Part shown: in pieces, positions 353 to 55,078 of the stretch
How positions within the stretch are numbered: the first letter of the stretch is position 1
How the letters are laid out: the number at the start of each line of letters is the position of its first letter
Assembly (NCBI GenBank): GCA_964405095.1
Contig: CAYOML010000003.1
Location: forward strand, 11,072-75,071
Direction of reading: 5' to 3'
Length of the DNA: 64,000 nucleotides
Origin: an uncultured Candidatus Saccharibacteria bacterium
GTDB taxonomy: Bacteria > Patescibacteriota > Saccharimonadia > Saccharimonadales > EFPC-124
The notes under the pieces: model-generated
Told to the model about the DNA's origin: nothing
What the model saw: the letters and a program-made list of their open reading frames with translations, nothing else
Databases searched by the model: none
Translations under genes and position numbers: made by a program

Positions 353-1381
353 TCACATCGACAAACTGGGTACAACTTCCAGAGTGTAAGGGTCGCTCGA
401 GGTTTGGTTTGTGGCGCGGTAGTAAGCCAGGCTGGCAATCATGGAGGCATTGTCGGTACAGAGGTTAATCGGTGGGTAGTCAATCGCGATGGGCAGCCGA
501 GCTTTGAGTTGGCCGCGCAATTCCTGGCTGGCCGCCACGCCACCGGCGATAACCACCGAGGCAGGGGAGTAGTCGTTGTAGGCGACAAGTGTTTTGTCGA
601 CTAGCGTCTCGGTTGCAATATGCGCGAAGCTAGCAGCAATATCGTTGCGCTGAGACGCGCTCAGAAGCTCGGCAAGCTGCGTTGAGGGAAAATCATGCGG
701 CTTATTGCATATTGCTTGTGCTTGGCGCAAAACAGCGGTTTTGAGCCCGCTAAAGCTAAAGTCATATTTACCGGACATGCGGGCCTTGGGGAAGGCGAAT
801 GCTTTAGGGTTGCCATCCTTGGCTGCTTTTTCGATGCTTGGTCCGCCAGGGTAGGGGAGACCGATGACTTTAGCGACTTTATCGAAGGCTTCGCCTACAG
901 CATCGTCTTGGGTTTGGCCCAGTAGTGTATAGTCGCCATGATCTTTAAATAGCACTAGTTGGCTGTGGCCGCCGCTGACTATTAGGGCCAACATCGGGAA
1001 CGCCGGGGTATTTTCCAACAAAAAGTTGGCGTAAACGTGGGCTTCGACGTGATGGATGGCGTATAGCGGTTTGCGCTTAACGACGGCCAACGTTCGGGCG
1101 GTTAAAGACCCGATAAGCAGTGAACCAATCAAACCCGGTGCGTAGGTAACACCAATAGCGTCGATGTTGTCCCAGGTAACTTTGGCGTCGAGCAAGGCCT
1201 TGTCGACAACTGGCAACATAACCTCGATATGGCTGCGCGCGGCCACCTCTGGCACTACGCCGCCAAACGCAATGTGGATGTCAATCTGGCTCTGCACGAC
1301 GTTACTTAAAATCTGTCGGCCGTCTTTAACGACCGCCGCTGCAGTTTCATCACAACTGGTTTCGATTCCGAGGATAATCAT
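353..1381 (-). CDS. tsaD: tRNA N6-adenosine threonylcarbamoyltransferase TsaD (Kae1/Gcp family)
   Basis: 342 aa. N-terminus MIILGIETSCDETAAAVV; HHVEAH metal site; full-length family architecture. Confidence 0.93.
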   Translation of the reverse strand: MIILGIETSCDETAAAVVKDGRQILSNVVQSQIDIHIAFGGVVPEVAARSHIEVMLPVVDKALLDAKVTWDNIDAIGVTYAPGLIGSLLIGSLTARTLAVVKRKPLYAIHHVEAHVYANFLLENTPAFPMLALIVSGGHSQLVLFKDHGDYTLLGQTQDDAVGEAFDKVAKVIGLPYPGGPSIEKAAKDGNPKAFAFPKARMSGKYDFSFSGLKTAVLRQAQAICNKPHDFPSTQLAELLSASQRNDIAASFAHIATETLVDKTLVAYNDYSPASVVIAGGVAASQELRGQLKARLPIAIDYPPINLCTDNASMIASLAYYRATNQTSSDPYTLEVVPSLSM

Positions 1382-1396: not shown

Positions 1397-1552
1397 TTAA
1401 AAACTTGATTCTCAAAACCTAATACTTATGGCCGGGTCCTGCCGCCTGGTCCGCCCCTAAAGATTTTTTTATGGAAATACATAAAAAAACTTTGGGGCAG
1501 CCCCGCCAGGCGTCACCCCTTTGTTTATGGGTTTTGAGAATCAAGTTTTTAA
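1397..1552 (+). repeat. family C element, long copy (C1): ~156-nt imperfect palindrome
   Basis: Perfect 23-bp arms ttaaaaacttgattctcaaaacc / ggttttgagaatcaagtttttaa enclose a 110-nt GC-rich imperfect hairpin (CGCCTGG/CCAGGCG, CCCC..GGGG, T7/A7). Confidence 0.8.
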
Positions 1553-2908: not shown

Positions 2909-2940
2909 TCTTTGCCCATACCGCTGGTCCAACATCTTTA

Positions 2941-3058
2941 TTATCTCAGGCCGCCGCCATCGACAAAAGTCGATGCTCGGCATGCGGGAAGTATAGCCTT
3001 CGCTAACCAAGGGTGTTTAGATGCAGCTGACGTAAGTTTCATAGCACTCATTAACAAG
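2941..3058 (+). repeat. family A element, copy A1 (left arm missing)
   Basis: Core ctcaggccgccgccatcgacaaaagtcgatgctcggcatgcgggaagtatagccttcg. The right flank gctaaccaagggtgtttagatgcagctgacgtaagttt is homologous to 9388..9425. Confidence 0.85.
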
Positions 3059-6371: not shown

Positions 6372-7706
6372 GTGAACTCAGCGATTTTTAAGTCTTACGA
6401 TATCCGCGGCAGAGTCGGCACCGAACTCACTAGTCGAGTTGCTAACGAAATAGCTAGAGCTTTTGCCGATTACTTACCAGAGACTGGGGTTGTGGCTGTT
6501 GGCCGCGATATGCGTCCCGATTCCGAACAACTGGCCACAGCATTTATAGAGGGTCTGCAAGCCCAGGGCCGTGATGTCATGGACGTCGGCATGGTGACAA
6601 GCGACATGGTCTACTTTGCAGTTGGCAAATATTCCTTGGCCGGCGGGGCAGTAATCACGGCCAGCCACAATACAGGTGCCGACAACGGGATTAAGCTATA
6701 TCGCGATCATGTAACGCCGGTTGGTTTAGGCTCGGGCCTCGAACAAGTCCGGGATGCTGTAATGGCTGGTAATTTTAAAGAGGAAACAGCCGTCCCGGGT
6801 AAGGTCACGCCGCGCGATATTACCGAAGATTGGGTAACTCATTGTCTGAGCTTTGTAAAAGGCTTGCAGCCGTTCCATATTGCGATTGATGCCGGCAACG
6901 GCATGGCCGGCGCCATTTTGCCATATATCCTGCTGCGCCTGCCGCTAAAAGTACAACAGATGTACTTTGAGCCGGACGGCACTTTTCCTAACCATGAAGC
7001 TAACCCACAAAAAGTTGAAAACTTGAAAGACTTGATGGGTCAGGTCAAAGAAAACGCCTACGACTTTGGCATTGCCTTTGACGGCGACGGTGACCGAGCG
7101 GTGTTTGTCGACGACATGGGCCGGCCAGTGCTAGGCAGCGATCTTATCAGTATTGTCGCCCACTATTATCTGCAAAAATATCCCGGCAGCAGTATTGTTT
7201 ATGATGTTCGGACATCACGCTCGACCCAAGAGCTGATTAAGCAGTGGGGTGGTGTACCCGTGCGTACCAAGGCTGGCCGCACATATATTGGCGCGAAACT
7301 GCGCGAAATTGGCGCGCCGTTTGGTGGTGAAACAACCGGCCACTTATTCTTTAAGGAGAATTACGATGCCGATAGTGGCCTGATCGCCGTCCTGGTGGCA
7401 ATGCAGGCTCTCAGTGACTCTCATCGCAAGCTCAGTGAGCTGGTTGATGAATATCACAAATACGTCATGGGCCCCGAAATCAACATGGATGTTGCCGACC
7501 CACAAAGTGCCCTAATCCGTCTGCGTGAAGCTTTTACCGATGGTGAACAAGATCAACTCGATGGGCTAACCGTTAATTACGCCGACCGCTGGTTTAACGT
7601 CCGCGCCAGCAACACCGAACCGGTAATGCGTTTGAACGCCGAAGCGCGCAGCCAGGGTGATTTGGATGCCTTAATACAACGCGTCCGTCACACGATCGAG
7701 GCGTAG
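6372..7706 (+). CDS. phosphomannomutase/phosphoglucomutase (alpha-D-phosphohexomutase)
   Basis: 444 aa with a GTG start after GAGGAGG (6355..6361). KSYDIRG; active-site TASHN; metal loop FDGDGDR. Confidence 0.85.
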   Translation: MNSAIFKSYDIRGRVGTELTSRVANEIARAFADYLPETGVVAVGRDMRPDSEQLATAFIEGLQAQGRDVMDVGMVTSDMVYFAVGKYSLAGGAVITASHNTGADNGIKLYRDHVTPVGLGSGLEQVRDAVMAGNFKEETAVPGKVTPRDITEDWVTHCLSFVKGLQPFHIAIDAGNGMAGAILPYILLRLPLKVQQMYFEPDGTFPNHEANPQKVENLKDLMGQVKENAYDFGIAFDGDGDRAVFVDDMGRPVLGSDLISIVAHYYLQKYPGSSIVYDVRTSRSTQELIKQWGGVPVRTKAGRTYIGAKLREIGAPFGGETTGHLFFKENYDADSGLIAVLVAMQALSDSHRKLSELVDEYHKYVMGPEINMDVADPQSALIRLREAFTDGEQDQLDGLTVNYADRWFNVRASNTEPVMRLNAEARSQGDLDALIQRVRHTIEA

Positions 7707-7717
7707 AAAGAACCAAG

Positions 7718-9271
7718 ATGACACTACAAGACACCCTGACCTATCAACCGGTCGAACTAGCCTTTGGCACATCTGGCCTGCGAGCGTTAGTGACCGACAT
7801 GACCGATCTGGAATGCTACATCAACGGGATTGGTTTCTTGCGTTTTTTGGAATCGGCAGATGGGCTGGAACCTGGCAATATTGTGTATCTCGCCGGTGAC
7901 TTAAGGCAAAGTACGCCGCGGATTTTGGCGGCCATGCAAAAAGCGATTAGTGACGCTGGTTACCGCACGGTGTATTGTGGGCTGATTCCCACACCGGCCC
8001 TTGCCTACATTGCCTTACAAAAACACTCGCCATGCATCATGGTAACCGGCAGTCACATCCCGGAAGACCGCAACGGAATTAAATTTTACAAGCGCGCCGG
8101 TGAAGTACTGAAAGAAGACGAGCTAGGTATTAAAGAGGCTGTGGCTACTTTCCGAGAGGCTGTGTATTCGAGCGACGCCAAGGTTAGTGATTTTGGCTCA
8201 AGTGGTGATCTTTTACAACCCCCGGCCTTGCCAACCGAAGACGGCGAGGCGCTGGCTATGTATCTCAAACACTATACCGACGTATTTAATGCTAAAACTC
8301 TGGCCGGCGTCAAAGTAGTGTTTTATCAGCACTCATCGGTTGGCCGTGATTCGCTGTCTGGTCTACTACAAGACCTTGGTGCCGAGGTAATACTCACCGG
8401 CCGGTCCGATAAATTTGTACCGATCGACAGTGAAAACGTAACACCCGACGATCAAGCCTACTTTAAGGTTCTCGCTCGCCAACACCCCGATGCCTTTGCG
8501 ATTGTTTCGACCGATGGTGACAGTGACCGGCCATTTGTGGTCGACGAGCAAGGCGTCTTTCACCGCGGCGATGTGCTTGGGGCGATTAACGCCGATTGGA
8601 TGAAGGCCGATTTTGCGGCTTATCCAGTTAGCTCCAGCGATGCAGTCGACCACCATCTGAGTGATCGTAAAGTTGCTTGGCAACATACCCGGATTGGCTC
8701 GCCATATGTTATATCAGTGATGCAAGAAGCCGTGCTGGCTGGCCACGAGCGTGTGGTTGGTTGGGAGGTTAATGGCGGGCTGCTACTGGGTAGCGATATA
8801 GAAATGCGCCATCATAAAATCCTGAAGGCTCTGCCTACCCGCGATGCGATTCTGCCGATTATTGGCGCGCTAGTCATGGCTCATAGTAACAAACAATCTA
8901 TGTCCCAACTATTTGGCAGTCTGGAGCAGCGCTTTACCCAGGCCGGTTTGATTGATAATTTCTCCGGCGATGTCTATAAGTTGATTGCCGCCCGCTTTGC
9001 AGCCGATACATCGGATGTGCGCCGAGATCTGGGGCAGTACTTTAGTTCAGCCCGTGGCTTCGGCGAGATCACCCAGATTAACTCTTTGGACGGAGTACGC
9101 ATCTACTTTGATAACGGCGATATTGCTCACTTGCGCCAGTCCAACAATGCCCCCCAACTACGTATGTACAGTGTGGCTAACACGCAGGAGCGCGCCGACG
9201 CGATTGTGTCGCTGGCGATAGCCGAAGAGGGTGGAATTTTCCGCGAGTTGCAGGGGGCTGTGAGTGCGTAG
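7718..9271 (+). CDS. alpha-D-phosphohexomutase family protein (second paralog)
   Basis: 517 aa. VTGSHIPEDRNGIKF active-site loop; STDGDSDRP metal loop. Confidence 0.8.
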   Translation: MTLQDTLTYQPVELAFGTSGLRALVTDMTDLECYINGIGFLRFLESADGLEPGNIVYLAGDLRQSTPRILAAMQKAISDAGYRTVYCGLIPTPALAYIALQKHSPCIMVTGSHIPEDRNGIKFYKRAGEVLKEDELGIKEAVATFREAVYSSDAKVSDFGSSGDLLQPPALPTEDGEALAMYLKHYTDVFNAKTLAGVKVVFYQHSSVGRDSLSGLLQDLGAEVILTGRSDKFVPIDSENVTPDDQAYFKVLARQHPDAFAIVSTDGDSDRPFVVDEQGVFHRGDVLGAINADWMKADFAAYPVSSSDAVDHHLSDRKVAWQHTRIGSPYVISVMQEAVLAGHERVVGWEVNGGLLLGSDIEMRHHKILKALPTRDAILPIIGALVMAHSNKQSMSQLFGSLEQRFTQAGLIDNFSGDVYKLIAARFAADTSDVRRDLGQYFSSARGFGEITQINSLDGVRIYFDNGDIAHLRQSNNAPQLRMYSVANTQERADAIVSLAIAEEGGIFRELQGAVSA

Positions 9272-9306: not shown

Positions 9307-9443
9307 CTGCAATTAAGCACCCTTAGTTATCTCAGGCGGCCAACATCGACAAAAGTCGATGCTTGGCATGCGGGAAGCATAGCCTTTGCTAACTAAGGGT
9401 GTTTAATTGCAGCTGACGTAAGTTTGTGGCACTCGTTGCCAAG
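9307..9443 (+). repeat. family A element, copy A2 (complete)
   Basis: 23-nt arms ctgcaattaagcacccttagtta / taactaagggtgtttaattgcag (one G-T pair) enclose a 60-nt core. The right flank is shared with A1. Confidence 0.85.
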
Positions 9444-9495: not shown

Positions 9496-9594
9496 GCCGC
9501 GAGTGGCGCGAAGGAAGGGGTGCCCCAGTCGCGCGCAGCCAGTACCCTGGCGAGCACGTCTGGGGAAGGAAGCCTAAGCGACGAGGCTCGCGGT
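9496..9594 (+). repeat. family D element, copy D1
   Basis: Closing stem GCCGCGAG/CTCGCGGT. Internal pairings CCCCAG/CTGGGG and GCCAG-tacc-CTGGC. Blocks ggggtgcccc..gcgcgcagcc..ggcgagca..ggggaaggaa..ctaagcgacgagg are shared with 42002..42143. Confidence 0.8.
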
Positions 9595-9689: not shown

Positions 9690-9716
9690 TTAGCACTCTT
9701 GCATTGACAGTGCTAA
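9690..9716 (+). promoter_or_regulatory. CIRCE operator (HrcA binding site) of the groES-groEL operon
   Basis: TTAGCACTC-ttgcattga-CAGTGCTAA, against the consensus TTAGCACTC-N9-GAGTGCTAA. It overlaps the groES promoter. Confidence 0.85.
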
Positions 9717-10052: not shown

Positions 10053-11699
10053 ATGGCTAAAAAAGTTTTTTACGATGACGATGCCCGCCGCCGAGTGCTT
10101 GGCGGAGCAAAGACGTTATACGACGCTGTAAAAGTTACAATGGGTCCTAAAGGCCGAAACGTAATTATTAGTAAAACCTACGGTGGCCCGACCGTTACCC
10201 ACGATGGTGTAACTGTAGCTAAGGGTATCGAACTGCCCGAAGAAGACAACGAAGAACTAGGTTTTAAAGTTGGCGCCGAGCTTATCAAGCAAGCTGCCAA
10301 CAAAATGAACGACGTAGCCGGTGACGGTACGACCACTGTTACTGTGCTAACTTACACCATTTTGGCCGAAGCCAATCGCCTAATTGCTGCTGGCCACAAC
10401 CCAATGGAACTGCGCAAAGGTGTCGAAGCCGCTGGCACCGAAGTGCTGGCTAAACTGGCTAGCATGGCCGAGCAAATCGGTAGCAAGAAAGAACGCGTGG
10501 CCGAAGTCGCCACGATTAGCGCTGGTGACGCGGAAATTGGCAAATTAATAGCCGATGTGATCAGCAAGATCGGCAAAGACGGCGTTGTAACCGTTGAAGA
10601 GGGCCAAGGTCTGCACCTTGAGGCCGAAGTTGTCGAAGGCTTTACCATGGATCGCGGCTTTGTGAGCCCCTACATGGTAACCGACGCCGCACGCATGGAA
10701 GCTGTTTACGACAAGCCGGCCATCGTAATTACCGACGAAAAGATCAGCAGTGTGCAACAATTCTTGCCACTACTCGAAAAACTCGCTCAAGCTGGCAAAA
10801 AAGATCTAATCTTGGTTGCCGAAGATGTTGAAGGCGAAGTCATGGCTACATTAATCCTTAACAAACTTAAGGGTGTGTTTAACACAGTGGCCGTTAAGGC
10901 CCCTGCCTTCGGCGACCGTCGCAAAGACATGCTTCAGGACTTGGCGGTTTTGACTGGCGCCCAAGTTATTAGTAAAGACCAAGGCGTAACCTTTGAAGAC
11001 GCCGAGCTAAGTATGGTAGGTAGTGCCCGCAAGGTAATTGTTGGTAAAGACAACACTACTATCATTGAAGGTGCGGGTTCGGCTGCCGACGTGACCGCGC
11101 GAATTAAGCAAATCAAAGCCCAGGCCGAAGCCGCTAGTAGCGAGTATGATAAAGAAAACTACGAAAAACGGGCTGCAGCCTTAAGTGGTAAGGTTGCCGT
11201 CATTAAAGTCGGTGGCGCCACCGAAACCGAGATCGAAGAAAAGAAATTCCGTGTCGACGACGCTGTGGCTGCCACCAAAGCTGCTCTGGCCGAGGGTGTG
11301 GTAGCTGGTGGTGGTGTGACATTTGTTGATCTCAGCAAAACACTCAAAGTTACCGGTAACGACAGCGCAGCCGCTGGCCATCAGTTGCTTAAAAACGCTC
11401 TATTGCAGCCTTTCCGACAGTTGATGAGCAATGCTGGTATGAACGCCGACGAAAAGTTGCCACAAGTGGTTGCCAGTAGCAAACCAGGCTACGGCTTCGA
11501 CGTCAACAACGCCGACAAGCTGATCGACCTTAAAGTGGCAGGTATTGTTGACCCGGCGCGGGTAGCCAAAGAAGCTATCCAAAATGCCGTCAGTATTGCC
11601 GCTACAGCCATGACCATGGGTGCCCTGGTGGTTGATATTCCCAAAGAAGAATCAGCTCCAGGCGGTGGCGGTGGCATGCCTGGTATGGGCATGATGTAA
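10053..11699 (+). CDS. groEL: chaperonin GroEL
   Basis: 548 aa. AGDGTTTVTVL motif and a GGM-type C-terminal tail (GGGGGMPGMGMM). Confidence 0.97.
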   Translation: MAKKVFYDDDARRRVLGGAKTLYDAVKVTMGPKGRNVIISKTYGGPTVTHDGVTVAKGIELPEEDNEELGFKVGAELIKQAANKMNDVAGDGTTTVTVLTYTILAEANRLIAAGHNPMELRKGVEAAGTEVLAKLASMAEQIGSKKERVAEVATISAGDAEIGKLIADVISKIGKDGVVTVEEGQGLHLEAEVVEGFTMDRGFVSPYMVTDAARMEAVYDKPAIVITDEKISSVQQFLPLLEKLAQAGKKDLILVAEDVEGEVMATLILNKLKGVFNTVAVKAPAFGDRRKDMLQDLAVLTGAQVISKDQGVTFEDAELSMVGSARKVIVGKDNTTIIEGAGSAADVTARIKQIKAQAEAASSEYDKENYEKRAAALSGKVAVIKVGGATETEIEEKKFRVDDAVAATKAALAEGVVAGGGVTFVDLSKTLKVTGNDSAAAGHQLLKNALLQPFRQLMSNAGMNADEKLPQVVASSKPGYGFDVNNADKLIDLKVAGIVDPARVAKEAIQNAVSIAATAMTMGALVVDIPKEESAPGGGGGMPGMGMM

Positions 11700-37905: not shown

Positions 37906-38949
37906 GTGGCACGAACTAAAACAGCAACCACCACACCACCGGCGGATGATCTTGACGAGTCGGCAGAAGCCGATGACGATACAACTTCTCTAGACGGCGA
38001 CCTACCAACTGACGATGCGACAACTACTGATGATGCCGTCGAACCAAATCCCGACGAATTCGAAGAAGAGGAAGAGTGGAAAGAAGACGAGGCTGTAGCC
38101 TCGAGCTACTTAGATGACATTTCTGACGACTCGGTGCGTTTGTACCTGCGCGAAATTGGCAAAATTCCGCTTTTGACGCCTGTCGAAGAATTGGCGCTGG
38201 CTCAGCGCGTCCGCCAAGGTGACAAAGACGCCAAAGATAAGATGGCCGAGGCCAACATGCGTTTAGTAGTGAGTATCGCCAAGCGTTACAGTGGTCGCGG
38301 CTTGGATTTTTTGGATCTGATCCAGGAAGGTAACACCGGTCTGCTACGCGCTGTCGAAAAATTTGATCCCGACAAGGGCTTTAAATTCAGTACCTACGCG
38401 ACCTGGTGGATCCGTCAGGCCATTACCCGTGCGATTGCCGACCAAGCCCGTACCATCCGTATTCCGGTGCACATGGTAGAAACCATCAACAAGCTGCTGC
38501 GCACCCAGCGCCGCATGACGCAGGAGCTCAACCGCGAGCCGTCAATCGAAGAACTGGCGGCCGAAATGGAGATGGAACCAGAGAAGATCGAATACGTCAT
38601 GAAGATCAAACAGGACATTACCTCGCTTGACGCAAATGTGCGCGATGATGATGACGACTCGGTGCTCGGCGATTTTATCGAGGACGAAGAAGCCCAAAGC
38701 CCTGAAGAATCGGCCGCTATTCAGCTTTTGAAGGAGCAAGTTAAAGAAATGCTCAGCGTTCTGACTGAACGCGAGCAAAAAATCCTGAAAATGCGCTTTG
38801 GTCTGGAAGACGGCAAAAGCCACACGCTCGAGGAAGTTGGCCAGGAATTTAGTGTAACCCGCGAGCGCATTCGACAGATTGAAGCCAAAGCACTTAGCAA
38901 ACTGCGCAAGCACAAAGACGCTAAGAAACTTTACGAATACTTGCAGTAA
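37906..38949 (+). CDS. rpoD: RNA polymerase sigma factor, sigma-70 primary type
   Basis: 347 aa with a GTG start after AGGAGG. Acidic N-terminus; region 2 [31 protein letters not shown]; region 4 [18 protein letters not shown]. Confidence 0.92.
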
Positions 38950-39597: not shown

Positions 39598-40884
39598 GTG
39601 AGTGAACATATTGAGGTGGCTGGTACCATTGCAAATACGGTGGGCGATACTTCGTCACCCGAAACAGCCGGTGATGAACTTGCTATGCGCAGAAAAGCCC
39701 GTAAACGTGGCGGGCCGGCGGTTAAAGCCCGGGTCGCCAGAGCACCTCGAAAGACTACAGGGAAAAAAGCTGGCGAGCGCGCACTTTTGAGCGTTGTCGG
39801 GGGTGAAGAAGGGTTGAGCCTGGATGAGATTCTAGCAGAAGTTGACGAATTTGGGTTTGATGCAGACGAACCTGAAGACAATGTACTAGACAGGCTAGGG
39901 GCTAGCAGTGATGAAGAGGGTGAAGACTTGTCGGACTTGGCCGATCTGGATGACGAAAGAGCCGATGCCTCGGTTACTGACCCTGTGCGCGCCTACATTA
40001 TCCGGGCCGGTAGGGTATCACTACTGGATGCTGCTCAAGAAGTTGACTTATCCAAGCGCATAGAAGCTGGCTTGTATGCGACAGAACTTTTACGTAGTTT
40101 TAATGAAGACGGCATTCCGCTTAACGGTTATACAGTCAAGGAACTTGAGTTTGTAGCTAAAGATGGCAGCCGCGCCAAAGATCACATGCTGGAAGCCAAC
40201 CTACGCCTTGTTATGAGTATTGCTAAACGTTACGTTCGCCACGGCGCGCATATGCAATTTTTGGATCTCATCCAAGAAGGTAACATTGGTATGGTTCGTG
40301 CTGTAGAAAAATTTAATTACAAACGGGGCTACAAGTTCAGCACGTACGCCACCTGGTGGATCCGCCAGGCTATCACTCGGGCGATTGGCGACCAGGCCCG
40401 TACTATTCGCATTCCGTTACATATGGTTGAGAATCTCAATCGGATGAGTACCGTTCAACGCGCTCTAACACATAGTCTTGGGCATGAACCAAGTGATCTC
40501 GAACTGGCCGAAGCATTAGATATAGATGAGAAGACCTTGGCAAAATGGCTCTCTTATGAGCGAGAGCCCGTCTCGCTTGACACGCCAGTGGGGGATGACA
40601 AAGAAAGCAGTCTCGGCAATTTTGTTAGCGATGATGATGCCGTTGACCCAGAAGAAGCTGCGGGGTATCAGCTGCAGGCTGCACAAATAGCAGAAGCACT
40701 TAATATTTTAACCGGCAGAGAACAGCTAGTGATGCGTTATCGCCTTGGGTTTTACGGTCGAGAGTATAGCCTCCAAGAGATTGCCCAGGAACTTGAGCTG
40801 AGTCGCGAGCGCATTCGTCAGATAGAGACAAAGGCTAAGGATAAACTTAGAGACTCGCCCCTTCTCGCCTCGTTTAGAAGCTAG
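39598..40884 (+). CDS. second sigma-70 family sigma factor (primary-like, regions 1.2-4 present)
   Basis: 428 aa. DPVRAYI (region 1.2); [42 protein letters not shown]; region 4 [18 protein letters not shown]. The GTG start is uncertain. Confidence 0.85.
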
Positions 40885-40906
40885 CCAAGTACCACCCCGA
40901 ATGCAC

Positions 40907-40912
40907 TATACT
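40907..40912 (+). promoter_or_regulatory. -10 box (TATACT) 6 nt upstream of the polA ATG at 40919
   Basis: TATACT-tatacc-ATG. The ORF-track start at 40901 lies upstream of and partly within the promoter. Confidence 0.45.
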
Positions 40913-40918
40913 TATACC

Positions 40919-43618
40919 ATGAGCAAACGCCTGGTTATTATAGATGGCAAAAGCGTATTTTACCGTGGCTACTATGCTATGCCCAGTTTAAGTACCAAAG
41001 ACGGCACACCCACTGGCGGGGTTTATGGTTTTGCAGTCATGGCACTAGAAGTAGTGAAGAAGTTAAAGCCGGATTATGTTTGCGTGGCGTGGGACAAACG
41101 CCACACCAATATTCGCTCCCGCGTGGCGTTATATCCTCAGTACAAAGCCAATCGCAAGCCGGCACCGCCAGATTTTTATGAGCAAATCCCGATTTTGTAC
41201 GACTTGTTGCATGCCTTAGGTTGGCCACTTTACGAAGCCGACGACTACGAAGCCGACGACCTAATGGGTGCCTTTGCCAAGCAAGCCGGCGAAAAGGACA
41301 TAGAAAGTTACCTTGTAACTAGCGACCTAGACGTTTTACAGCTCGTAAACCCACATACCCACATTTACACCCTTAAAAAAGGCCTCAGCCACATAGAACT
41401 ATTCAATGTGGCTAGCTTTGAAGAAAAATACGGCGTCAGTGCTCACCAATGGGTGGATGTTAAAGCGCTGAAAGGTGATTCGTCCGACAATATTCCAGGC
41501 GTAGCCGGCGTCGGCGAAAAAACCGCTTTGGAGCTCATAAAACAATATGGTTCGCTCGACGGAGTTTACGAAAACATCGAACTTATTAAAAACACTCTCA
41601 AAGATAAACTCGTCAAAGATAAAGACATGGCCTACCTAAGTAAAAAACTTGTCACCCTGATGGTAGACGCACCCATAAAAATTGACCTCGCACACGCCAA
41701 ACTCCACGACGGTGTCACCCCTGAATTTGTGGCCATATTACGCAAACTCGAATTCCGTAACCTTCTTCGCCAGGCCGAAGCCGGCATGACCAAATCCGAA
41801 CTAGAAGCCGCTGAAGAACACATCGAAGAGCACGAAATGCCCGAAATCAAAAAGAAAAAATTCGACCAAGCCGACTACAAACCCACCCAAACCCGCGTAA
41901 TAGCCCTCAGCCCCGACAGCAGTACACTATGGGTCAGCCCAATTCAAGGCTACTATAGTATATTGCCGTTAACTGAGAGCACTGGTTCTACGTCAGCCGG
42001 GGGTGACCCGGAGGGAGGGGCGCCCCGGTCACGCGCAGCCGTACTCGGCGAGCATGTCCGGGGAGGGAAACCTGAGGGGCAGGACCCGCGGGGTGGTCTG
42101 CACAACAATGAAGGCGGTCTAAGCGACGAGGCACGTGGTCACCTTGAAACGGTAATGAACGGTCCTCTCATCGGCCACGACCTCAAAAGTATCTTCAGAT
42201 ATCTGCTCGGCCTTGGCGTAAAAACCGAACCCAAAGTCGAACACGACACCCGCATCGCCGCCTTCATCCTAAATTCATTGGAACGCTCCCGCGAACTCGG
42301 CGACCTCCGCGGCCGTACCCTCGACATGGCCAACCCCGCTGAAGTTCTCCCATCCACCTGGGAAGCTTACAAAGACCAAAAACTCCAATTCGATCAACTC
42401 CCCAAACTTCAAATGCTTGCCACCGACATGGACTTCCCCAGCATCTACCTTCTCGCCAAAATGGAGCACCGCGGTATTCGCCTCGACAGCACATATCTTA
42501 ACAACATGGGCAAAAAATTCGAGGTCCAATTAAAAGAATTTGAACAAAAAATTTACGAACTGGCTGGGCAAGAATTTAACATTGCCTCGCCAACCCAGCT
42601 TGGTGAAATCTTGTACGTAAAACTCGGCTTGCCAACCGGCGGCGTCAAAAAAGGCAAAACCGGCTATTCTACTGGCGCCAAAGAGTTAGAGAAATTAAAG
42701 CCGTTGCATCCACTGCCAGCGCTGGTTTTGCAGTACCGCGAATACGCTAAACTCAAAAGCACCTACATCGACACCCTCCCAAAACTTGTCGATGCCCAAG
42801 GCAAATTGCATACCACCTACGATCTGGACGTTGCCGCAACTGGCCGTCTCAGCAGTCGCGACCCTAACCTGCAAAACATCCCTACCCGTACCGAAATTGG
42901 TCAAGCCATCCGCACAGCCTTTCTGCCGGGTCCAGGTAACGTGTTTGTAAGCGCTGACTACAACCAGTTTGAGTTGCGTCTTTCGGCCGTGATGGCCGAG
43001 GATAAAGAGCTAATCGAAAGCTTTAACAAACACGAAGACGTCCACACCAAAACTGCCGCCCAGTTATATGGCATTCCTACCGCCACTGTCACTAAAGAAC
43101 AGCGCCGTCATGCCAAAACCGTCAATTTTGGGATTTTGTATGGCATGAGCCCACATGGCTTGCAAGCCGCGACCGGCATGAGTTTTGCCGAAGCGCGGGA
43201 TTTTATCAAAAAGTATTTTGAGCTGCGAGCGCCGATCCGCGACTACATCGACAATATAGTTAAAAAAGCCCTACACGACGGCTATGTAGAAACCATCTTT
43301 GGCCGTCGTCGTCCAACCCCAGACTTAAAAAGCAGCAACTTCGCCGTCCGCGAAGCCGCCAAACGCGCCGCCATGAACATGCCAATCCAGGGAACCGAAG
43401 CCGATATTATGAAGTTGGCAATGCTGGCGGTGGAAGAAAAGTTGAGTGGGCTAGGCGAGCAGCTGCTGCAAATCCACGACAGCATTTTAGTAGAATGCCC
43501 CGAGGCAAACGCCGAAAAAGTCAGCAAAATCTTAAAAGAAACCATGGAATCTATCCACCCTCTGCCGGTCGAGCTAAAAGTCGACGTCAGCACTGGAAAA
43601 AACTGGGGTGCACTCTAG
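40919..43618 (+). CDS. polA: DNA polymerase I
   Basis: ~899 aa. 5' nuclease (LVIIDGKSVFYRGYYA, SDNIPGVAGVGEKTA); pol motifs DYNQFELRL (A), RRHAKTVNFGILYG (B) and QIHDSILVE (C). Contains the family D repeat at 42002..42143 in-frame. Confidence 0.95.
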   Translation: MSKRLVIIDGKSVFYRGYYAMPSLSTKDGTPTGGVYGFAVMALEVVKKLKPDYVCVAWDKRHTNIRSRVALYPQYKANRKPAPPDFYEQIPILYDLLHALGWPLYEADDYEADDLMGAFAKQAGEKDIESYLVTSDLDVLQLVNPHTHIYTLKKGLSHIELFNVASFEEKYGVSAHQWVDVKALKGDSSDNIPGVAGVGEKTALELIKQYGSLDGVYENIELIKNTLKDKLVKDKDMAYLSKKLVTLMVDAPIKIDLAHAKLHDGVTPEFVAILRKLEFRNLLRQAEAGMTKSELEAAEEHIEEHEMPEIKKKKFDQADYKPTQTRVIALSPDSSTLWVSPIQGYYSILPLTESTGSTSAGGDPEGGAPRSRAAVLGEHVRGGKPEGQDPRGGLHNNEGGLSDEARGHLETVMNGPLIGHDLKSIFRYLLGLGVKTEPKVEHDTRIAAFILNSLERSRELGDLRGRTLDMANPAEVLPSTWEAYKDQKLQFDQLPKLQMLATDMDFPSIYLLAKMEHRGIRLDSTYLNNMGKKFEVQLKEFEQKIYELAGQEFNIASPTQLGEILYVKLGLPTGGVKKGKTGYSTGAKELEKLKPLHPLPALVLQYREYAKLKSTYIDTLPKLVDAQGKLHTTYDLDVAATGRLSSRDPNLQNIPTRTEIGQAIRTAFLPGPGNVFVSADYNQFELRLSAVMAEDKELIESFNKHEDVHTKTAAQLYGIPTATVTKEQRRHAKTVNFGILYGMSPHGLQAATGMSFAEARDFIKKYFELRAPIRDYIDNIVKKALHDGYVETIFGRRRPTPDLKSSNFAVREAAKRAAMNMPIQGTEADIMKLAMLAVEEKLSGLGEQLLQIHDSILVECPEANAEKVSKILKETMESIHPLPVELKVDVSTGKNWGAL
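42002..42143 (+). repeat. family D element, copy D2, inside the polA reading frame
   Basis: Closing stem GGTGACC/GGTCACC. CCCCGG/CCGGGG and GCCG-tact-CGGC. The core is homologous to 9496..9594, with an extra ~47-nt insert. Confidence 0.8.
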
Positions 43619-52828: not shown

Positions 52829-52934
52829 CCGAAACGAGACATAAGCGATTGTCTCAGGCCGCCGACATCGACAAAAGTCGATGCTCGGCATGCGGGAAGC
52901 ATAGCCTTCGTCAATCACTTATGTCTCGTTTCGG
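52829..52934 (+). repeat. family A element, copy A3 (complete)
   Basis: 23-nt arms ccgaaacgagacataagcgattg / caatcacttatgtctcgtttcgg (one C-A mismatch) enclose a 60-nt core that is near-identical to A1 and A2. Confidence 0.85.
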
Positions 52935-53071
52935 CTGGCGCAAACACTATGCCAGTATGGAGAACTCTAGTACCAAACTGTTAGAATTGTGGATAACTTT
53001 CTTGCAGAGGTTAACTGCTTATGCTACAGTAAACCCAAAGTCTACTAAAAAACAAAAAGGCTAAAAACACC

Positions 53072-55078
53072 ATGCAGCCAGACACGTCGAATGCCAAGCA
53101 GCTCATTATTGAGCGAGTTCGTCAGGCGACGAGTATTTTGATTGCGGTCAGTACCGATCCGTCGGTTGATGCTTTATCTGGGGCACTTGCTCTGGCGCTA
53201 ATGCTCAATAAAATGGATAAGCACGCAACAGCGGTGTTTAGCGGTAAAATGCCGCCGGCCATGGAATTTTTGGGTGCCAGTAAAACCTTCGAGAGCACAG
53301 TTAATTCGCTCCGCGACTTTATAATTTCGCTTGACAAAGAAAAAGCCGACCGTCTGCGTTACAAAGTCGAGAATGACGTAGTACGTATTTTTATCACACC
53401 GTACAAAACAACCATCACCGAAAAAGACCTGCAATTTAGCCAAGGAGATTTTAACGTCGAACTCATAATTGCACTTGGTGTCGAGAAGCGTGAAGACCTC
53501 GACAAAGCGATTGTCGCTCACGGCCGCATTCTGCATGATGCAACGGTAGTTACAATCAATCCTGGCACTCAAACTAGCAATCTCGGCGTTGCCGACTGGC
53601 ATGACACTGCTGCTAGTAGCTTATGTGAAATGCTACTTAGCATGTCCGAGTCGTTCCAGCAGCCAGGCCTACTGGACGCACAAATTGCTACGTCTTTGCT
53701 GACTGGTATTGTTGCTGCCACCGAACGCTTTAGTAACCAAAAGACCAACCCTAAAGTCATGACGATGGCCGCCCAACTAATGGCGGCTGGAGCTAACCAA
53801 CAGCTAATTGCTACTAATCTTGGTAAGGTGCAGACGTTGACGGCCCCAGGGGAAGTCGCTGCTACCGGCGATCTAGTACCAGGCGCCGAATCTGTCAAAG
53901 TGCTCGAGCCTGAGGCGCCTCCTGCTAAAGATGGCGAACTTGATATAACACATAAGAAAAAGACGCCTACTGCCCAGCCAGAACCTCAAACTAAAGCAGA
54001 AGAAGAGCTGGCGGCCGCCTTACCGCAAATTAACGCTGGACCAACGTTTGAAAAACTCAAAACGGCTCTTAATGAAGAATCGAAGGCCGAAGAACCGAAG
54101 ATTGCGCCATTCCTGCAACCAACCAAAGAAACCGAAACTCCAGGCAGCGCAGCAGTGGATATGACGGCACCCGATGAAGACAACTCGGTTACAGAAGGCC
54201 AGCCTTATTTAGCGGGCTCCGGCTCATGGCGTGAGAAACGTCTCGGGGCACCAGAGTTGGGTGGCACACTTAACGCGACGGCCGAGCAGGCAGAAGAAGA
54301 AACCAAGAAATCAGAGGATGAAGATCGCAATAAGATGTTGTTAACGCATCCTGACAAGCCAGGTGGTAACACACCAGCCACATCGCTACCACCGACGCTT
54401 ACACCAGTTAACGAACCGCCGGCCGTACCCGTTGTATTAACACCCGGGTTGCCTACCGAAGCTGAGACACCAGCCATGCCGCCGCTACCGGTAGTAGAAC
54501 CTGGCGACACAGCTCCTTTTCCTCCGTTACCGCCAGCCATGCCGCCGACCCAGCCAACAATAGCACCTGCGCCGGAACCGATCGTTCCAACACCACAACC
54601 ACTTGCGCCAACACTCACACCTGAGCCGCCTGTTATACCAACGCCCGTGCCACCAACCACACCTCCCCTGATACCAGAACCCACACCAATTGAACCACCA
54701 GCTCTGTCACCTGATCTTGACGCTGCTCGTCAAGCAGTCGATGCTGCCCTTGGTTCGCAACCCTTTAATCCTGCTAATGAACCAATGACATCTATCGGGG
54801 CAATGCCACTGGGTGGACCATTAAACCCGCCAGTATCAACAGGGCCACTTCCGACTATATCTACTGGCACTACTCCGGAACCGCTGCCACCATTGCCGCC
54901 AGTGTTGCCACCATCACCCTTGCCAGATTTGGGCGGTCCTTTGCCACTCCCACCTAGCCTCACAGACGTACCTCCGACTCCTCCTGGTTTAGTGCCACCC
55001 CCGCCAGTTGTACCACCGCCCGAACCCACACCACCAGCATCAAACGATCCCGGACAGTTCAAAATTCCTGGTCAGTAG
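53072..55078 (+). CDS. DHH-fold domain protein with degenerate catalytic motifs, fused to a long proline-rich C-terminal region
   Basis: 668 aa. The N-terminal ~250 aa are collinear with NrnA-type DHH domains, but motif I is STDPSVDALSG (family pattern HxxPDGDAxGS) and motif III is TINPG (family pattern IDHH). The C-terminal ~330 aa are P/T/E-rich. Confidence 0.6.
   Translation: MQPDTSNAKQLIIERVRQATSILIAVSTDPSVDALSGALALALMLNKMDKHATAVFSGKMPPAMEFLGASKTFESTVNSLRDFIISLDKEKADRLRYKVENDVVRIFITPYKTTITEKDLQFSQGDFNVELIIALGVEKREDLDKAIVAHGRILHDATVVTINPGTQTSNLGVADWHDTAASSLCEMLLSMSESFQQPGLLDAQIATSLLTGIVAATERFSNQKTNPKVMTMAAQLMAAGANQQLIATNLGKVQTLTAPGEVAATGDLVPGAESVKVLEPEAPPAKDGELDITHKKKTPTAQPEPQTKAEEELAAALPQINAGPTFEKLKTALNEESKAEEPKIAPFLQPTKETETPGSAAVDMTAPDEDNSVTEGQPYLAGSGSWREKRLGAPELGGTLNATAEQAEEETKKSEDEDRNKMLLTHPDKPGGNTPATSLPPTLTPVNEPPAVPVVLTPGLPTEAETPAMPPLPVVEPGDTAPFPPLPPAMPPTQPTIAPAPEPIVPTPQPLAPTLTPEPPVIPTPVPPTTPPLIPEPTPIEPPALSPDLDAARQAVDAALGSQPFNPANEPMTSIGAMPLGGPLNPPVSTGPLPTISTGTTPEPLPPLPPVLPPSPLPDLGGPLPLPPSLTDVPPTPPGLVPPPPVVPPPEPTPPASNDPGQFKIPGQ

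Follow-up and report, generated by a model that had tools for sequence, protein, structure and literature searches.

A GC-rich hairpin module carried in-frame within polA of a Saccharimonadales bacterium and its likeness to palindromic repeats inside genes

Rickettsia palindromic elements (RPEs), described by Ogata et al. (2000), are palindromic, hairpin-forming repeats of ~100-150 nt that lie between genes or in-frame within them. According to a later account (PMC10969869), RPEs number in the tens per genome and occupy many unrelated ORFs, each family specifying a conserved peptide in a fixed frame. REP sequences are shorter extragenic palindromes of 20-40 nt with a GTAG or CGTC tag and high copy number (PMC3733652). 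Intragenic ERIC and RU elements have been reported as well, indicating that such repeats can carry open frames (PMC3184786, PMC3733652).

The element analysed here, termed module D, resembles RPEs in that it too is found between genes as well as in-frame within a housekeeping gene, in a bacterium whose genome is reduced. The insert likewise falls in a surface loop, likewise is a source of new peptide segments, and is a palindromic hairpin unit, as judged from the folds of nine copies and the pairing of 89.7% described below. Landing in a surface loop is what makes an in-frame palindromic insert tolerable. Module D differs from RPEs in having only three copies per 64 kb, a single ORF host (polA) among those found, a peptide that is not conserved, and frame shifts within the element. 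Furthermore, its copies are old and divergent and show compensatory changes, occupying an orthologous site across genera or families and occurring in another phylum. With MITEs, REPs and BIMEs it shares the form of a short, non-coding, GC-rich imperfect palindrome at scattered, unrelated loci; however, no cognate transposase or RAYT was identified among the window ORFs, which were screened in part, and copy number is very low. At 87-99 nt it is also longer and more elaborate than REP or BIME units, carries no GTAG/CGTC tag at its ends, and has one intragenic copy. Given the low copy number and the lack of another in-frame host among those found, it is therefore neither a typical RPE nor a typical MITE. 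The parallel with RPEs drawn in the original prediction holds for the tolerance of a palindromic module in-frame; it does not extend to the range of ORF hosts found or to conservation of the peptide, nor, within the 64 kb of the window and ~160 kb from relatives, to copy number. Module D, of which no description was found in the literature searched, is on this comparison probably an undescribed, low-copy cousin of the palindromic repeats within Rickettsia genes.

Copies of module D in the window

The window, i.e. the whole 64-kb stretch of DNA analysed, comes from a Saccharimonadales (CPR) bacterium. Homologues of its polA product carry the Pfam domains 5_3_exonuc_N, 5_3_exonuc and DNA_pol_A. 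The ORF list shows the polA frame crossing, without interruption, a GC-rich block that is homologous to an interval upstream of groES. When the groES-side copy was compared with the window by blastn, the best match was 41996-42076 (79.5% over 83 nt, E = 6e-14), in agreement with the homology first proposed from the sequence blocks, all of which are present in the sequence; a second match fell at 42110-42139 (83% over 30 nt, E = 0.001). The polA and groES-side copies are also the only places in the window that match a degenerate core pattern of 24 nt, for which 0 matches are expected. With covariance models (CM) exactly three copies of module D are found (Table 1), the third, near tsaD, having been absent from the original list. 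The GC content of the module is 0.70-0.80 as against ~0.50 for the genome.

Table 1. Features of the window associated with module D
Feature	Position	Strand	Evidence
polA (DNA polymerase I, 905 aa), host gene	40901..43618	+	ORF
Complete module D copy in polA, 95 nt, codons 366-398	41998..42092	+	CM R1 79.4 bits, E 5e-15; R2 76 bits
Orphan second 3' half of the module (GAAGGCGGTCTAAGCGACGAGGCACGTGG), encoding EGGLSDEARG	42110..42139	+	Repeat search, 83% over 30 nt; blastn
Span of 7-bp inverted repeat GGTGACC/GGTCACC, not the homologous closing stem	42002..42143	+	Sequence; fold z = -0.30
Intergenic module D copy (groES side)	9496..9594	+	CM 85 bits; fold z = -3.0 and -3.7
Third, divergent module D copy	1429..1521	-	R1 22 bits, E 0.014; R2 42 bits (not independent, R2 having been built with this copy included); fold z = -3.2
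Extended hairpin enclosing the core of the third copy, perfect 23-nt inverted repeat TTAAAAACTTGATTCTCAAAACC / GGTTTTGAGAATCAAGTTTTTAA	1397..1552	-	Sequence

The polA element had been given as 42002-42143; the covariance model assigns it instead the 95 nt of Table 1, and the MFE fold of those 95 nt has the same architecture as the model. Downstream of the complete copy lies an orphan second 3' half. It matches the corresponding part of the groES-side copy as well as the 'GEGGxSDEAR' linker found in a clade of 874-880-aa PolA proteins. Orthologue DNA in two relatives (L003, L015) supports this assignment. The motif ctaagcgacgagg at 42119, at first counted as part of the element, belongs to the orphan half and not to the complete element.

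The groES-side copy begins 225 nt past the stop of a phosphomannomutase-like gene (7718-9271, by Pfam) and ends 176 nt short of groES (9771), with the CIRCE operator downstream of it. In the closest accessible relative of the gene upstream of this copy, synteny differs. The third copy precedes tsaD (353-1381, minus strand; Pfam TsaD) by 48 nt and has the layout GGGG-UGA-CGCCUGG ... CCAGGCG-GCAGGAC-CCC with an AU-rich P2. Consensus scans found no own-strand promoter upstream of either intergenic copy of the window and no terminator. A target-site duplication has a single candidate, CATAA, flanking the 1429-1521 core, with none evident at the groES-side copy or in polA. A second family in the window, of 104 nt, has an 'invariant core plus covarying outer stem' design, as does module D.

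Conserved fold and shifting codon phase

Module D is a GC-rich imperfect palindrome of ~90-100 nt that forms a small family of dispersed copies. Its layout runs P1, UGG/UGA, P1b, purine-rich joiners, a P2 hairpin (CGCGCAGC...GCGAGCA), P1b', (A/G)CAGGAC and P1', and the unpaired motifs UGG, CGCGCAGC, GCGAGCA and ACAGGAC are conserved. In the polA copy, P1 (CCGGGGG/CCCGCGG) is followed by UGA, P1b (CCC/GGG), purine-rich joiners, P2 (CCCCGG..CGCGCAGC-hairpin-GCGAGCA..CCGGGG) and GCAGGAC. This arrangement, P1 and then UGA-CCC...GGG-GCAGGAC, corresponds to that of six orthologous copies, which close with P1 beside UGG/ACAGGAC. The closing stem initially put forward, GGTGACC/GGTCACC (42002-08 / 42137-43), is a real 7-bp inverted repeat, but the MFE fold of the full interval does without it. 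The repeat spans the duplicated 3' half and overlaps the conserved UGA/P1b.

Three compensatory differences between the polA and groES-side copies, listed in the original prediction, are present in the sequence and are reproduced by independent MFE folds: CCCCGG/CCGGGG versus CCCCAG/CTGGGG, A42031-T42055 versus G9531-C9557, and GCCG-tact-CGGC versus GCCAG-tacc-CTGGC. In MFE folds, nine copies all take the form of one and the same long, irregular hairpin, and the divergent polA copies of L019 and L003 have fold z-scores of -8.8 and -4.6, respectively. Across 10 copies, 89.7% of cells are paired versus 27-43% in slid controls, and 12 of the 21 base pairs are altered on both sides. The covariation score, from an alignment of only 10 sequences fitted to the model, is 0.394, compared with 0.04-0.07 for slid partners, and is reached by none of 500 shuffles. 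P1b appears as CGC/GCG, CGCGGC/GCCGCG, CGGGCA/UGCCCG, CAGCCCGC/GCGGGCUG, CGGGACGGCA/UGCCGUCCCG and CGCCUGG/CCAGGCG. The closing stem P1 also varies and covaries among copies (GCCGCGAG, CCGGGGG, GCGGG, GGGG), because of which module D, in contrast to MITEs, has no conserved terminal inverted repeats.

The peptide does not follow the fold. The codon phase of CGCAG, GAGCA and CAGGAC is not the same among polA copies, with frameshifts compensated downstream, and the encoded peptides are unrelated in the 3' half. Because the codon phase of these landmarks differs between lineages, it is the nucleic-acid structure that is conserved and not the peptide; the original prediction had likewise held the fold, and not the sequence, to be conserved. 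Orientation, and the codon phase at the 5' GGUGRC landmark, are common to all polA copies. In the window polA the length of the hairpin loop shifts the frame by -2 nt, and +47 nt downstream restore it. All seven polA copies are in-frame despite their differing internal phases, a count that is partly an ascertainment effect, the orthologues having been found as full-length proteins, and most frames of the GC-rich block are open anyway. Restoration of the frame after internal length changes is expected only if the block is translated; from frame maintenance alone, then, we infer translation through the module.

At the protein level the insert is flanked by strand 351-356 and helix 409-419, both in the degenerate exo-like domain of PolA, and the orphan half overlaps the start of that helix. 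The AF2 model has a mean pLDDT of 84 and is confident apart from residues 360-405, where pLDDT is below 50 (23-31). These residues are modelled as a disordered surface loop, which would be a permissive site, and the location of the insert in a loop of this domain had been correctly anticipated. A sequence search of the PDB with the 200-aa region around the insert gave no match. By phmmer, the low-complexity peptides of the element reach only 26-37 bits.

An ordinary lineage-specific, low-complexity PolA linker, like the groES-side copy by chance or composition, would also be Gly/Arg/Glu-rich and predicted disordered, as the translated segment is, and the PolA linker varies widely in length among orthologues at this very spot. 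However, the blastn match within the window, the covariance-model matches in six other polA genes (47-90 bits) and at two non-coding loci, the covarying stems, and the shifting codon phase of a peptide that is not conserved refute this explanation, which is to be regarded as next to impossible. Distant PolA orthologues were found to lack the segment, and further copies of the core exist elsewhere, so the refuting condition set in the original prediction leaves that prediction standing.

A stable GC-rich hairpin inside an ORF could in principle be excised from the RNA in the manner of an intron, or bypassed by the ribosome, leaving a protein that lacks the block. Mobile GC-cluster or 'byp' hairpins of yeast mitochondria are short GC-rich modules that invade protein-coding genes of a compact genome and are skipped by the ribosome. 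These hairpins interrupt the frame, whereas in polA the frame is actively preserved, which indicates read-through. The searches made yielded no direct evidence of excision or bypass, models of group I/II introns and ribozymes had no match to the module, and AF2 accommodates the block as a loop. To our knowledge 95 nt is also too short for known self-splicing introns. Together with the restored frame, these observations give no support to the RNA-level excision once suggested for this block and make excision or bypass very improbable.

Distribution and history of the polA insert

At least six further Saccharimonadales lineages (L001, L002, L003, L017, L018 and L019) have module D in the same loop of PolA. 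Most PolA orthologues lack it or contain decayed remnants; remnants are seen in L016 and in the 874-880-aa PolA clade. In the latter, the linker tested as a decayed module with the covariance model scored a non-significant 2.7 bits, its demonstrable relation to the module being limited to the 3' 30 nt. Near polA of L016, at a distance of 7 kb, lies an IS1595-type transposase, with no link to the module. Scans of ~160 kb from relatives with the covariance model found no copy apart from those in polA. Outside Saccharimonadales, a homologue lies in a divergent intergenic region of an Aminicenantes MAG (L004), where a RarA-like AAA ATPase gene follows it after ~85 nt.

This last locus came from a search of 185,579 species representatives with the core pattern, in which no Saccharimonadales genome was found. 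Of 10 matches to the P2 core pattern in the genome collection, nine are chance occurrences in GC-rich genomes and only that in Aminicenantes is homologous. A metagenome scan with the 3' block returned a single chance match within an unrelated ORF, and two scans of viral contigs returned 0 and 14 matches, the 14 likewise due to chance with none confirmed by the covariance model. Plasmid and phage collections searched by blastn gave no match. A profile of the translated element, of limited sensitivity as it represents one frame and one subtype and was run against cluster representatives, found among 1.84 billion representative proteins only two spurious eukaryote-like repeat proteins.

No two copies of module D are near-identical. 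Identity of the groES-side copy is 79-82% with the polA copies of genomes in which PolA itself is only 70-72% identical, versus 69% with the polA copy of its own genome. The window polA copy is 75% identical to that of L002 versus 59% to its positional orthologue in L003, and is therefore a mosaic. The insert-less sister L020 reads GCGAAG-GGGCCGCCGCC-GAGGCGCTC; judged by its sequence this empty site looks like a deletion footprint, and comparison with the filled site of L002 shows a footprint-like junction, not a duplication.

We favour, at a probability of roughly 45%, the reading that a hairpin repeat module was inserted in-frame long ago, is translated, and is kept at the nucleic-acid level. 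The module would have been inserted once, in-frame, in an ancestor of the Saccharimonadales group, into a permissive loop of the vestigial exonuclease domain, and then inherited. The polA mRNA would retain it, and ribosomes would read through to give a disordered Gly/Arg/Ala-rich loop with neither splicing nor bypass. Later events may have included hairpin-prone deletion in many lineages, decay to an ordinary linker elsewhere (the 874-880-aa PolA clade), partial duplication or nesting in the window genome (42110-42139), and sequence exchange between copies, producing mosaics. Upkeep of the hairpin could act through copy-to-copy conversion, arm-to-arm templated correction, or selection on the fold. 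The polA copy does not resemble a recent hop; it has the look of an ancient, inherited insertion with repeated later loss or decay.

In a neighbour-joining tree, itself crude and lacking support values, each insert-bearing PolA is a single taxon surrounded by insert-less relatives, and this holds for all three major clades. The scatter counts against the favoured reading, in which one insertion with many losses is an inference. It could also reflect recombinational spread or recurrent, site-specific insertion ('homing'), in which the module or module-bearing polA alleles entered the same loop several times independently, including into an older remnant here. The window polA, where a complete module is accompanied by an orphan 3' half of another subtype, would suit such a history, as would the orientation and phase common to all copies at the 5' GGUGRC. 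However, a single ancestral insertion would give the shared phase and loop just as readily, the empty L020 site resembles a deletion footprint, hairpins are prone to deletion (palindrome instability), and no endonuclease, recombinase or reverse transcriptase partner is known. Homing is accordingly considered improbable.

Palindromic DNA or functional RNA

Module D may instead be an undescribed functional structured RNA, either a cis-acting mRNA or leader element or an sRNA, with the fold under selection. The polA copy would then be in dual use, being translated and also serving as an RNA structure of the polA transcript that might control stability or translation, bind a protein or be processed to an sRNA. 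Like riboswitch-like RNAs, module D has invariant joining nucleotides, covariation in every helix, leader-side copies co-directional with their genes, and conservation across phyla. All three intergenic copies (two in the window, one in Aminicenantes) lie upstream of, and co-directional with, a gene. Conserved unpaired motifs and covarying stems shared with Aminicenantes are the signature of a functional RNA and count against the repeat-module reading. Copies are few and diverged in sequence, yet the fold is kept, as in L019 and L003. When L001 is compared with L002, conservation of the element exceeds that of synonymous sites, with 28 of 32 third codon positions identical versus 57-60% elsewhere in polA (binomial p = 4e-4); under the repeat-module reading, too, this fits upkeep of the nucleic acid and not of the peptide. 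The 104-nt family of the window, being of the same design, is a further point in favour.

Other observations weigh against an RNA function. Riboswitch-like RNAs differ in that one module D copy lies inside an ORF, an atypical location for riboregulators, and in that the associated genes share no pathway: the contexts, namely the polA ORF, the spacer between the phosphomannomutase-like gene and groES, and the tsaD and rarA leaders, are unrelated. No expression platform was seen. Rfam 15 had no match in the window at gathering score, and at E <= 10 nothing meaningful was found for the polA and groES-side copies and four related loci. SRP RNA, RNase P CR-I/CR-V, HDV-like, group II domain 5 and k-turn motifs were compared by eye; their topology or conserved positions do not fit, and Rfam lends them no support. 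The element is dispensable, having been deleted or decayed in most PolA lineages, and the lack of an own-strand promoter or terminator in the consensus scans of the intergenic window copies also speaks against an sRNA or leader. Nor is there a strand-specific signal: G-U pairs and A-C mismatches number four each, and the reverse strand folds equally well (z -3.65 versus -3.72). Equal G-U and A-C counts and antisense folding, together with high GC content and the perfect inverted repeats of 23 nt and 18 nt that enclose the 1429-1521 and Aminicenantes copies, respectively, suggest the flavour of a DNA palindrome. A functional RNA is a serious rival, though held as less probable than the repeat module. 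Its fuller form, a structured RNA whose fold is under purifying selection in two phyla or more, long kept as a dual-coding domain in the essential polA ORF of Saccharimonadales and with the 104-nt family as a second such class, is unlikely. Possible roles of such a domain include autoregulation of polA, or an sRNA or protein-binding module released from the mRNA.

Were the fold selected as RNA, module D would be an undescribed RNA class and a rare overlap of protein and RNA-structure coding. If it is selfish palindromic DNA, as in the preferred repeat-module reading, the occurrence of repeats inside genes seen in Rickettsia extends to an entirely different reduced-genome lineage, and one insertion variously inherited, decaying to a normal linker (the GEGGxSDEAR clade) or deleted offers a natural series for the gain of a protein loop. 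With the covariance model built here, the question can be put to a direct test in complete genomes and transcriptomes. Saccharibacteria and other CPR genomes are ~1 Mb in size and thought to be streamlined; yet in the window genome two or more families of GC-rich modules with elaborate folds are present, of which one sits within an essential replication gene.

Structure and limits of module D in polA

Homologues of the window's polA encode Saccharimonadales DNA polymerase I, with 5'-nuclease and pol A Pfam domains, which places the window in a Saccharibacteria/CPR genome of ~50% GC; the gene reads through a block of ~77% GC. By blastn against the whole window, 41996-42076 matches the intergenic copy on the groES side at 79.5% over 83 nt (E=6e-14) and 42110-42139 matches it at 83% over 30 nt (E=0.001). 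In the whole window, a 24-nt degenerate core pattern matches just polA and that intergenic copy, with 0 matches expected. Since, in addition, the shared blocks and inner compensatory changes named in the original prediction are all present, the similarity is real and far beyond chance.

Module D in the orthologues compared is comprised, in order, of stem P1, UGG, stem P1b, a purine-rich joiner, stem P2, a second joiner, the 3' arm P1b', (A/G)CAGGAC, and P1'. UGG is replaced by UGA in two copies, (A/G)CAGGAC reads ACGAGGC in one subtype, and P2 carries CGCGCAGC, a variable apical hairpin, and GCGAGCA. The original prediction described the in-frame block and its homology correctly; it erred on the boundaries and the outer stem, and it overlooked a third copy. 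A covariance model built from nine copies gives 41998-42092 in place of 42002-42143. The originally predicted closing stem GGTGACC/GGTCACC overlaps the conserved UGA/P1b, spans extra sequence, and is unused by the MFE fold of the predicted span, whose stability is no better than that of shuffles (z=-0.30). The homologous closing stem is CCGGGGG/CCCGCGG, and the 95-nt unit alone folds into the family architecture (MFE).

Coordinates of module D copies and associated features (window positions, except the L004 homologue)
Feature	Position	Strand	Basis or remark
polA	40901-43618	+	single ORF, 905 aa
Module D, polA copy	41998-42092	+	covariance model, 79 bits
Orphan 3' half of module, ctaagcgacgagg block at 42119	42110-42139	+	repeat and blastn match
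Module D, intergenic copy	9496-9594	+	covariance model, 85 bits
Module D, third copy	1429-1521	-	covariance model; 48 nt upstream of tsaD
Perfect 23-nt inverted repeat around third copy	1397-1552	-	sequence
Module D homologue, L004, MAG JALHTW010000344.1 binned as Aminicenantes	890-980	-	57-59 bits
Second structured repeat family, ~104 nt	2936-3039; 9322-9425; 52844-52947	all +	

The ctaagcgacgagg block, formerly counted within the element, belongs to a second, orphan 3' half; thus, the polA locus combines a complete module with a second piece, remnant or duplicate, of another subtype. The orphan half resembles the 3' end of the intergenic copy, the orthologous stretch of L003 (a relative's polA), and the 'GEGGxSDEAR' linker of a large clade of 874-880-aa PolAs. 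The idea that this linker, 36-42 aa in that clade, is a decayed module throughout gains no significant support, with only 2.7 bits from the covariance model.

PolA orthologues are 842-910 aa long, a variation located exactly at the module site. Six of the nine polA loci examined at the DNA level (L001, L002, L003, L017, L018, and L019) carry a recognisable module D in the same loop. The same module recurs in independently produced assemblies (ENA, Logan, NCBI, and JGI), so an artefact is ruled out. A confident AlphaFold2 model (mean pLDDT 84) supports the predicted placement in a loop of the degenerate exo-like region: residues 360-405, among them the module at 366-398, form an unstructured, low-confidence loop (pLDDT 23-31) that follows strand 351-356 and precedes helix 409-419.

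Conservation of the fold and history of the insert

Pair statistics derive from a ten-copy alignment, its copies related and the alignment fitted to the covariance model. Standard pairs occupy 89.7% of cells versus 27-43% with partners slid 1-3 columns, and the covariation score is 0.394 versus 0.04-0.07 in slid controls, a value reached by 0 of 500 shuffles. Single-sequence MFE folds give the same helices independently of the alignment. P1b differs in sequence in nearly every copy. Landmark codon phase in the polA copies varies by lineage and is restored downstream; thus, the encoded peptides are unrelated past the first few residues. Together with the 12 of 21 pairs changed on both sides, this bears out the proposal that fold, not sequence, is conserved. 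Between L001 and L002, 28 of 32 third codon positions are identical in the element versus 57-60% elsewhere in polA (p=4e-4). Set against these data, a plain PolA linker is very unlikely. Whenever internal length changes, the frame is repaired; translation is therefore the simplest reading of the block, and excision or bypass is given scarcely any weight.

Wherever the DNA was verified, the polA copies sit in one loop and one orientation, and the 5' GGUGRC landmark keeps a single codon phase. An NJ tree of 121 PolAs, computed with the linker masked, places insert-bearing proteins in each of its three major clades, nested among others whose linkers are 6-13 aa long. These short-linker proteins, and the insert-less L020 (polA of protein P0056, sister of L002), provide orthologues without the segment, the check that the original prediction called for. 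The L020 site, at ~11040-11100, reads GGCGAAG-GGGCCGCCGCC-GAGGCGCTC; its resemblance to two joined module ends points to an internal deletion at a once-occupied site. In the polA of L016 only the 5' 35 nt of the module is left.

The window polA copy is 75% identical to that of L002 and only 59% to its positional orthologue in L003, while the proteins of the window and L003 share 87% identity. At its ends the groES-side copy is of the L001/L002 type (79-82% identity), but its apical hairpin is of the type found in the polA copies of L003 and of the window genome. This mosaic pattern suggests sequence exchange between copies. A single old polA insertion, lost or decayed repeatedly since, is consistent with the shared placement of the copies, the L020 site, and the L016 remnant; spread of alleles by recombination is an alternative, and recurrent insertion ('homing') appears improbable.

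Distribution and nature of module D

Further copies, sought as a test of the original prediction, are recognised by the covariance model: a third in the window, those in the polA of six relatives, and one in a MAG binned as Aminicenantes. With filters off, the window holds exactly three. The third retains GGGG-UGA-[CGCCUGG]...[CCAGGCG]-GCAGGAC-CCC with an AU-rich P2 (fold z=-3.2). CATAA flanks its core on both sides, which may be a 5-bp target duplication or chance, and the structure delimited by the surrounding repeat closes with a U-run, 16 nt ahead of the start codon of tsaD.

A core-pattern scan of one genome per species (185,579 species) gave nine chance matches and one homologue, L004, which sits between divergently oriented genes, ~85 nt upstream of one for a RarA-like AAA ATPase. 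It lies inside a perfect 18-nt inverted repeat (AAGTAATTCTTTTTCCGG / CCGGAAAAAGAATTACTT), different from the 23-nt repeat of the window; a weak hairpin with a U6 tract follows. An isolated P2-core match in a Myxococcales MAG (L013, SECP01000006.1, 5923-5957(+), CGGGCGCGCGCAGCC-CGAC-UGGGCGAGCACGUCCG; 25 bits, E 0.003-0.011), preceded by GGGAGGGG and with a tRNA gene ~75 nt away, could represent chance similarity between GC-rich sequences or part of a homologue. No module D was found outside polA in ~160 kb flanking the gene in relatives, nor in JGI metagenome contigs scanned with the 3' block, IMG/VR, or plasmid and phage collections. No Rfam family matches and no description was found in the Saccharibacteria literature searched; the module appears undescribed.

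Overall, the original interpretation is partly supported. The most fitting category for module D is that of structured repeats within genes, and there is a substantial chance that it is a new RNA class. At a probability of roughly 0.45, we read it as a palindromic repeat akin to RPEs, REPs, and MITEs, present in few copies and maintained as DNA. Consistent with this are dispersal to non-homologous loci within and between genomes, reaching another phylum, a GC content far above the host's, the mosaic copies, the orphan half, traces of deletion and decay, and perfect inverted repeats around the third and L004 copies. However, copy number is very low with no near-identical copies, conserved termini of the MITE kind are lacking, no transposase was identified, and there is no clear target duplication. 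A limited-sensitivity profile search of 1.84 billion representative proteins found no ORF host beyond polA. The parallel with Rickettsia palindromic elements holds in one respect only: a housekeeping protein accommodates a hairpin repeat, in frame, in one of its surface loops. RPEs have many ORF hosts and a conserved peptide (PMC10969869). REPs are 20-40 nt with a GTAG/CGTC tag (PMC3184786, PMC3733652), unlike module D.

A new functional structured RNA, a tentative reading not exclusive of the palindromic repeat, would fit the invariant unpaired motifs, covariation in every helix, conservation across phyla at low copy number, the position of each intergenic copy upstream of and co-directional with a gene, and a second family nearby of the same design. 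Yet the module is dispensable in most lineages, its gene contexts are unrelated, one copy lies in an ORF, and consensus scans at the intergenic copies found no own-strand promoter and no terminator. Strand signal is likewise lacking, both strands folding equally and G-U not exceeding A-C (4 vs 4), which counts in favour of the repeat reading.

Neighbouring genes and the second repeat family

The second family has an almost invariant core, UCUCAGGCCGCC.ACAUCGACAAAAGUCGAUGCU.GGCAUGCGGGAAG.AUAGCCUU, enclosed by a 17-bp outer stem varying by copy, with 11 pairs changed on both sides. One copy precedes a Mur-ligase paralogue, another precedes module D/groES, and the third precedes an ORF without Pfam match (53072-55078). 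The family has no Rfam match; a riboswitch-like RNA and another mobile hairpin are both conceivable.

Shortly before groES (9771), a CIRCE-like operator at 9690-9716 (TTAGCACTC-N9-CAGTGCTAA) overlaps a TTGACA hexamer; the intergenic module D thus likely lies upstream of the groES promoter, outside the 5' UTR. Tandem phosphoglucomutase/phosphomannomutase-family paralogues occupy 6372-7706 and 7718-9271 (+). In L021, the closest accessible relative of the latter gene (80% identity), a minus-strand gene and not groES lies downstream, which means that gene order near the intergenic copy is not conserved. Directly upstream of polA are two sigma-70 (RpoD-like) paralogues (37906-38949 and 39598-40884, +), sharing ~78% identity over 187 nt, and the sigma-polA synteny is also present in relatives.
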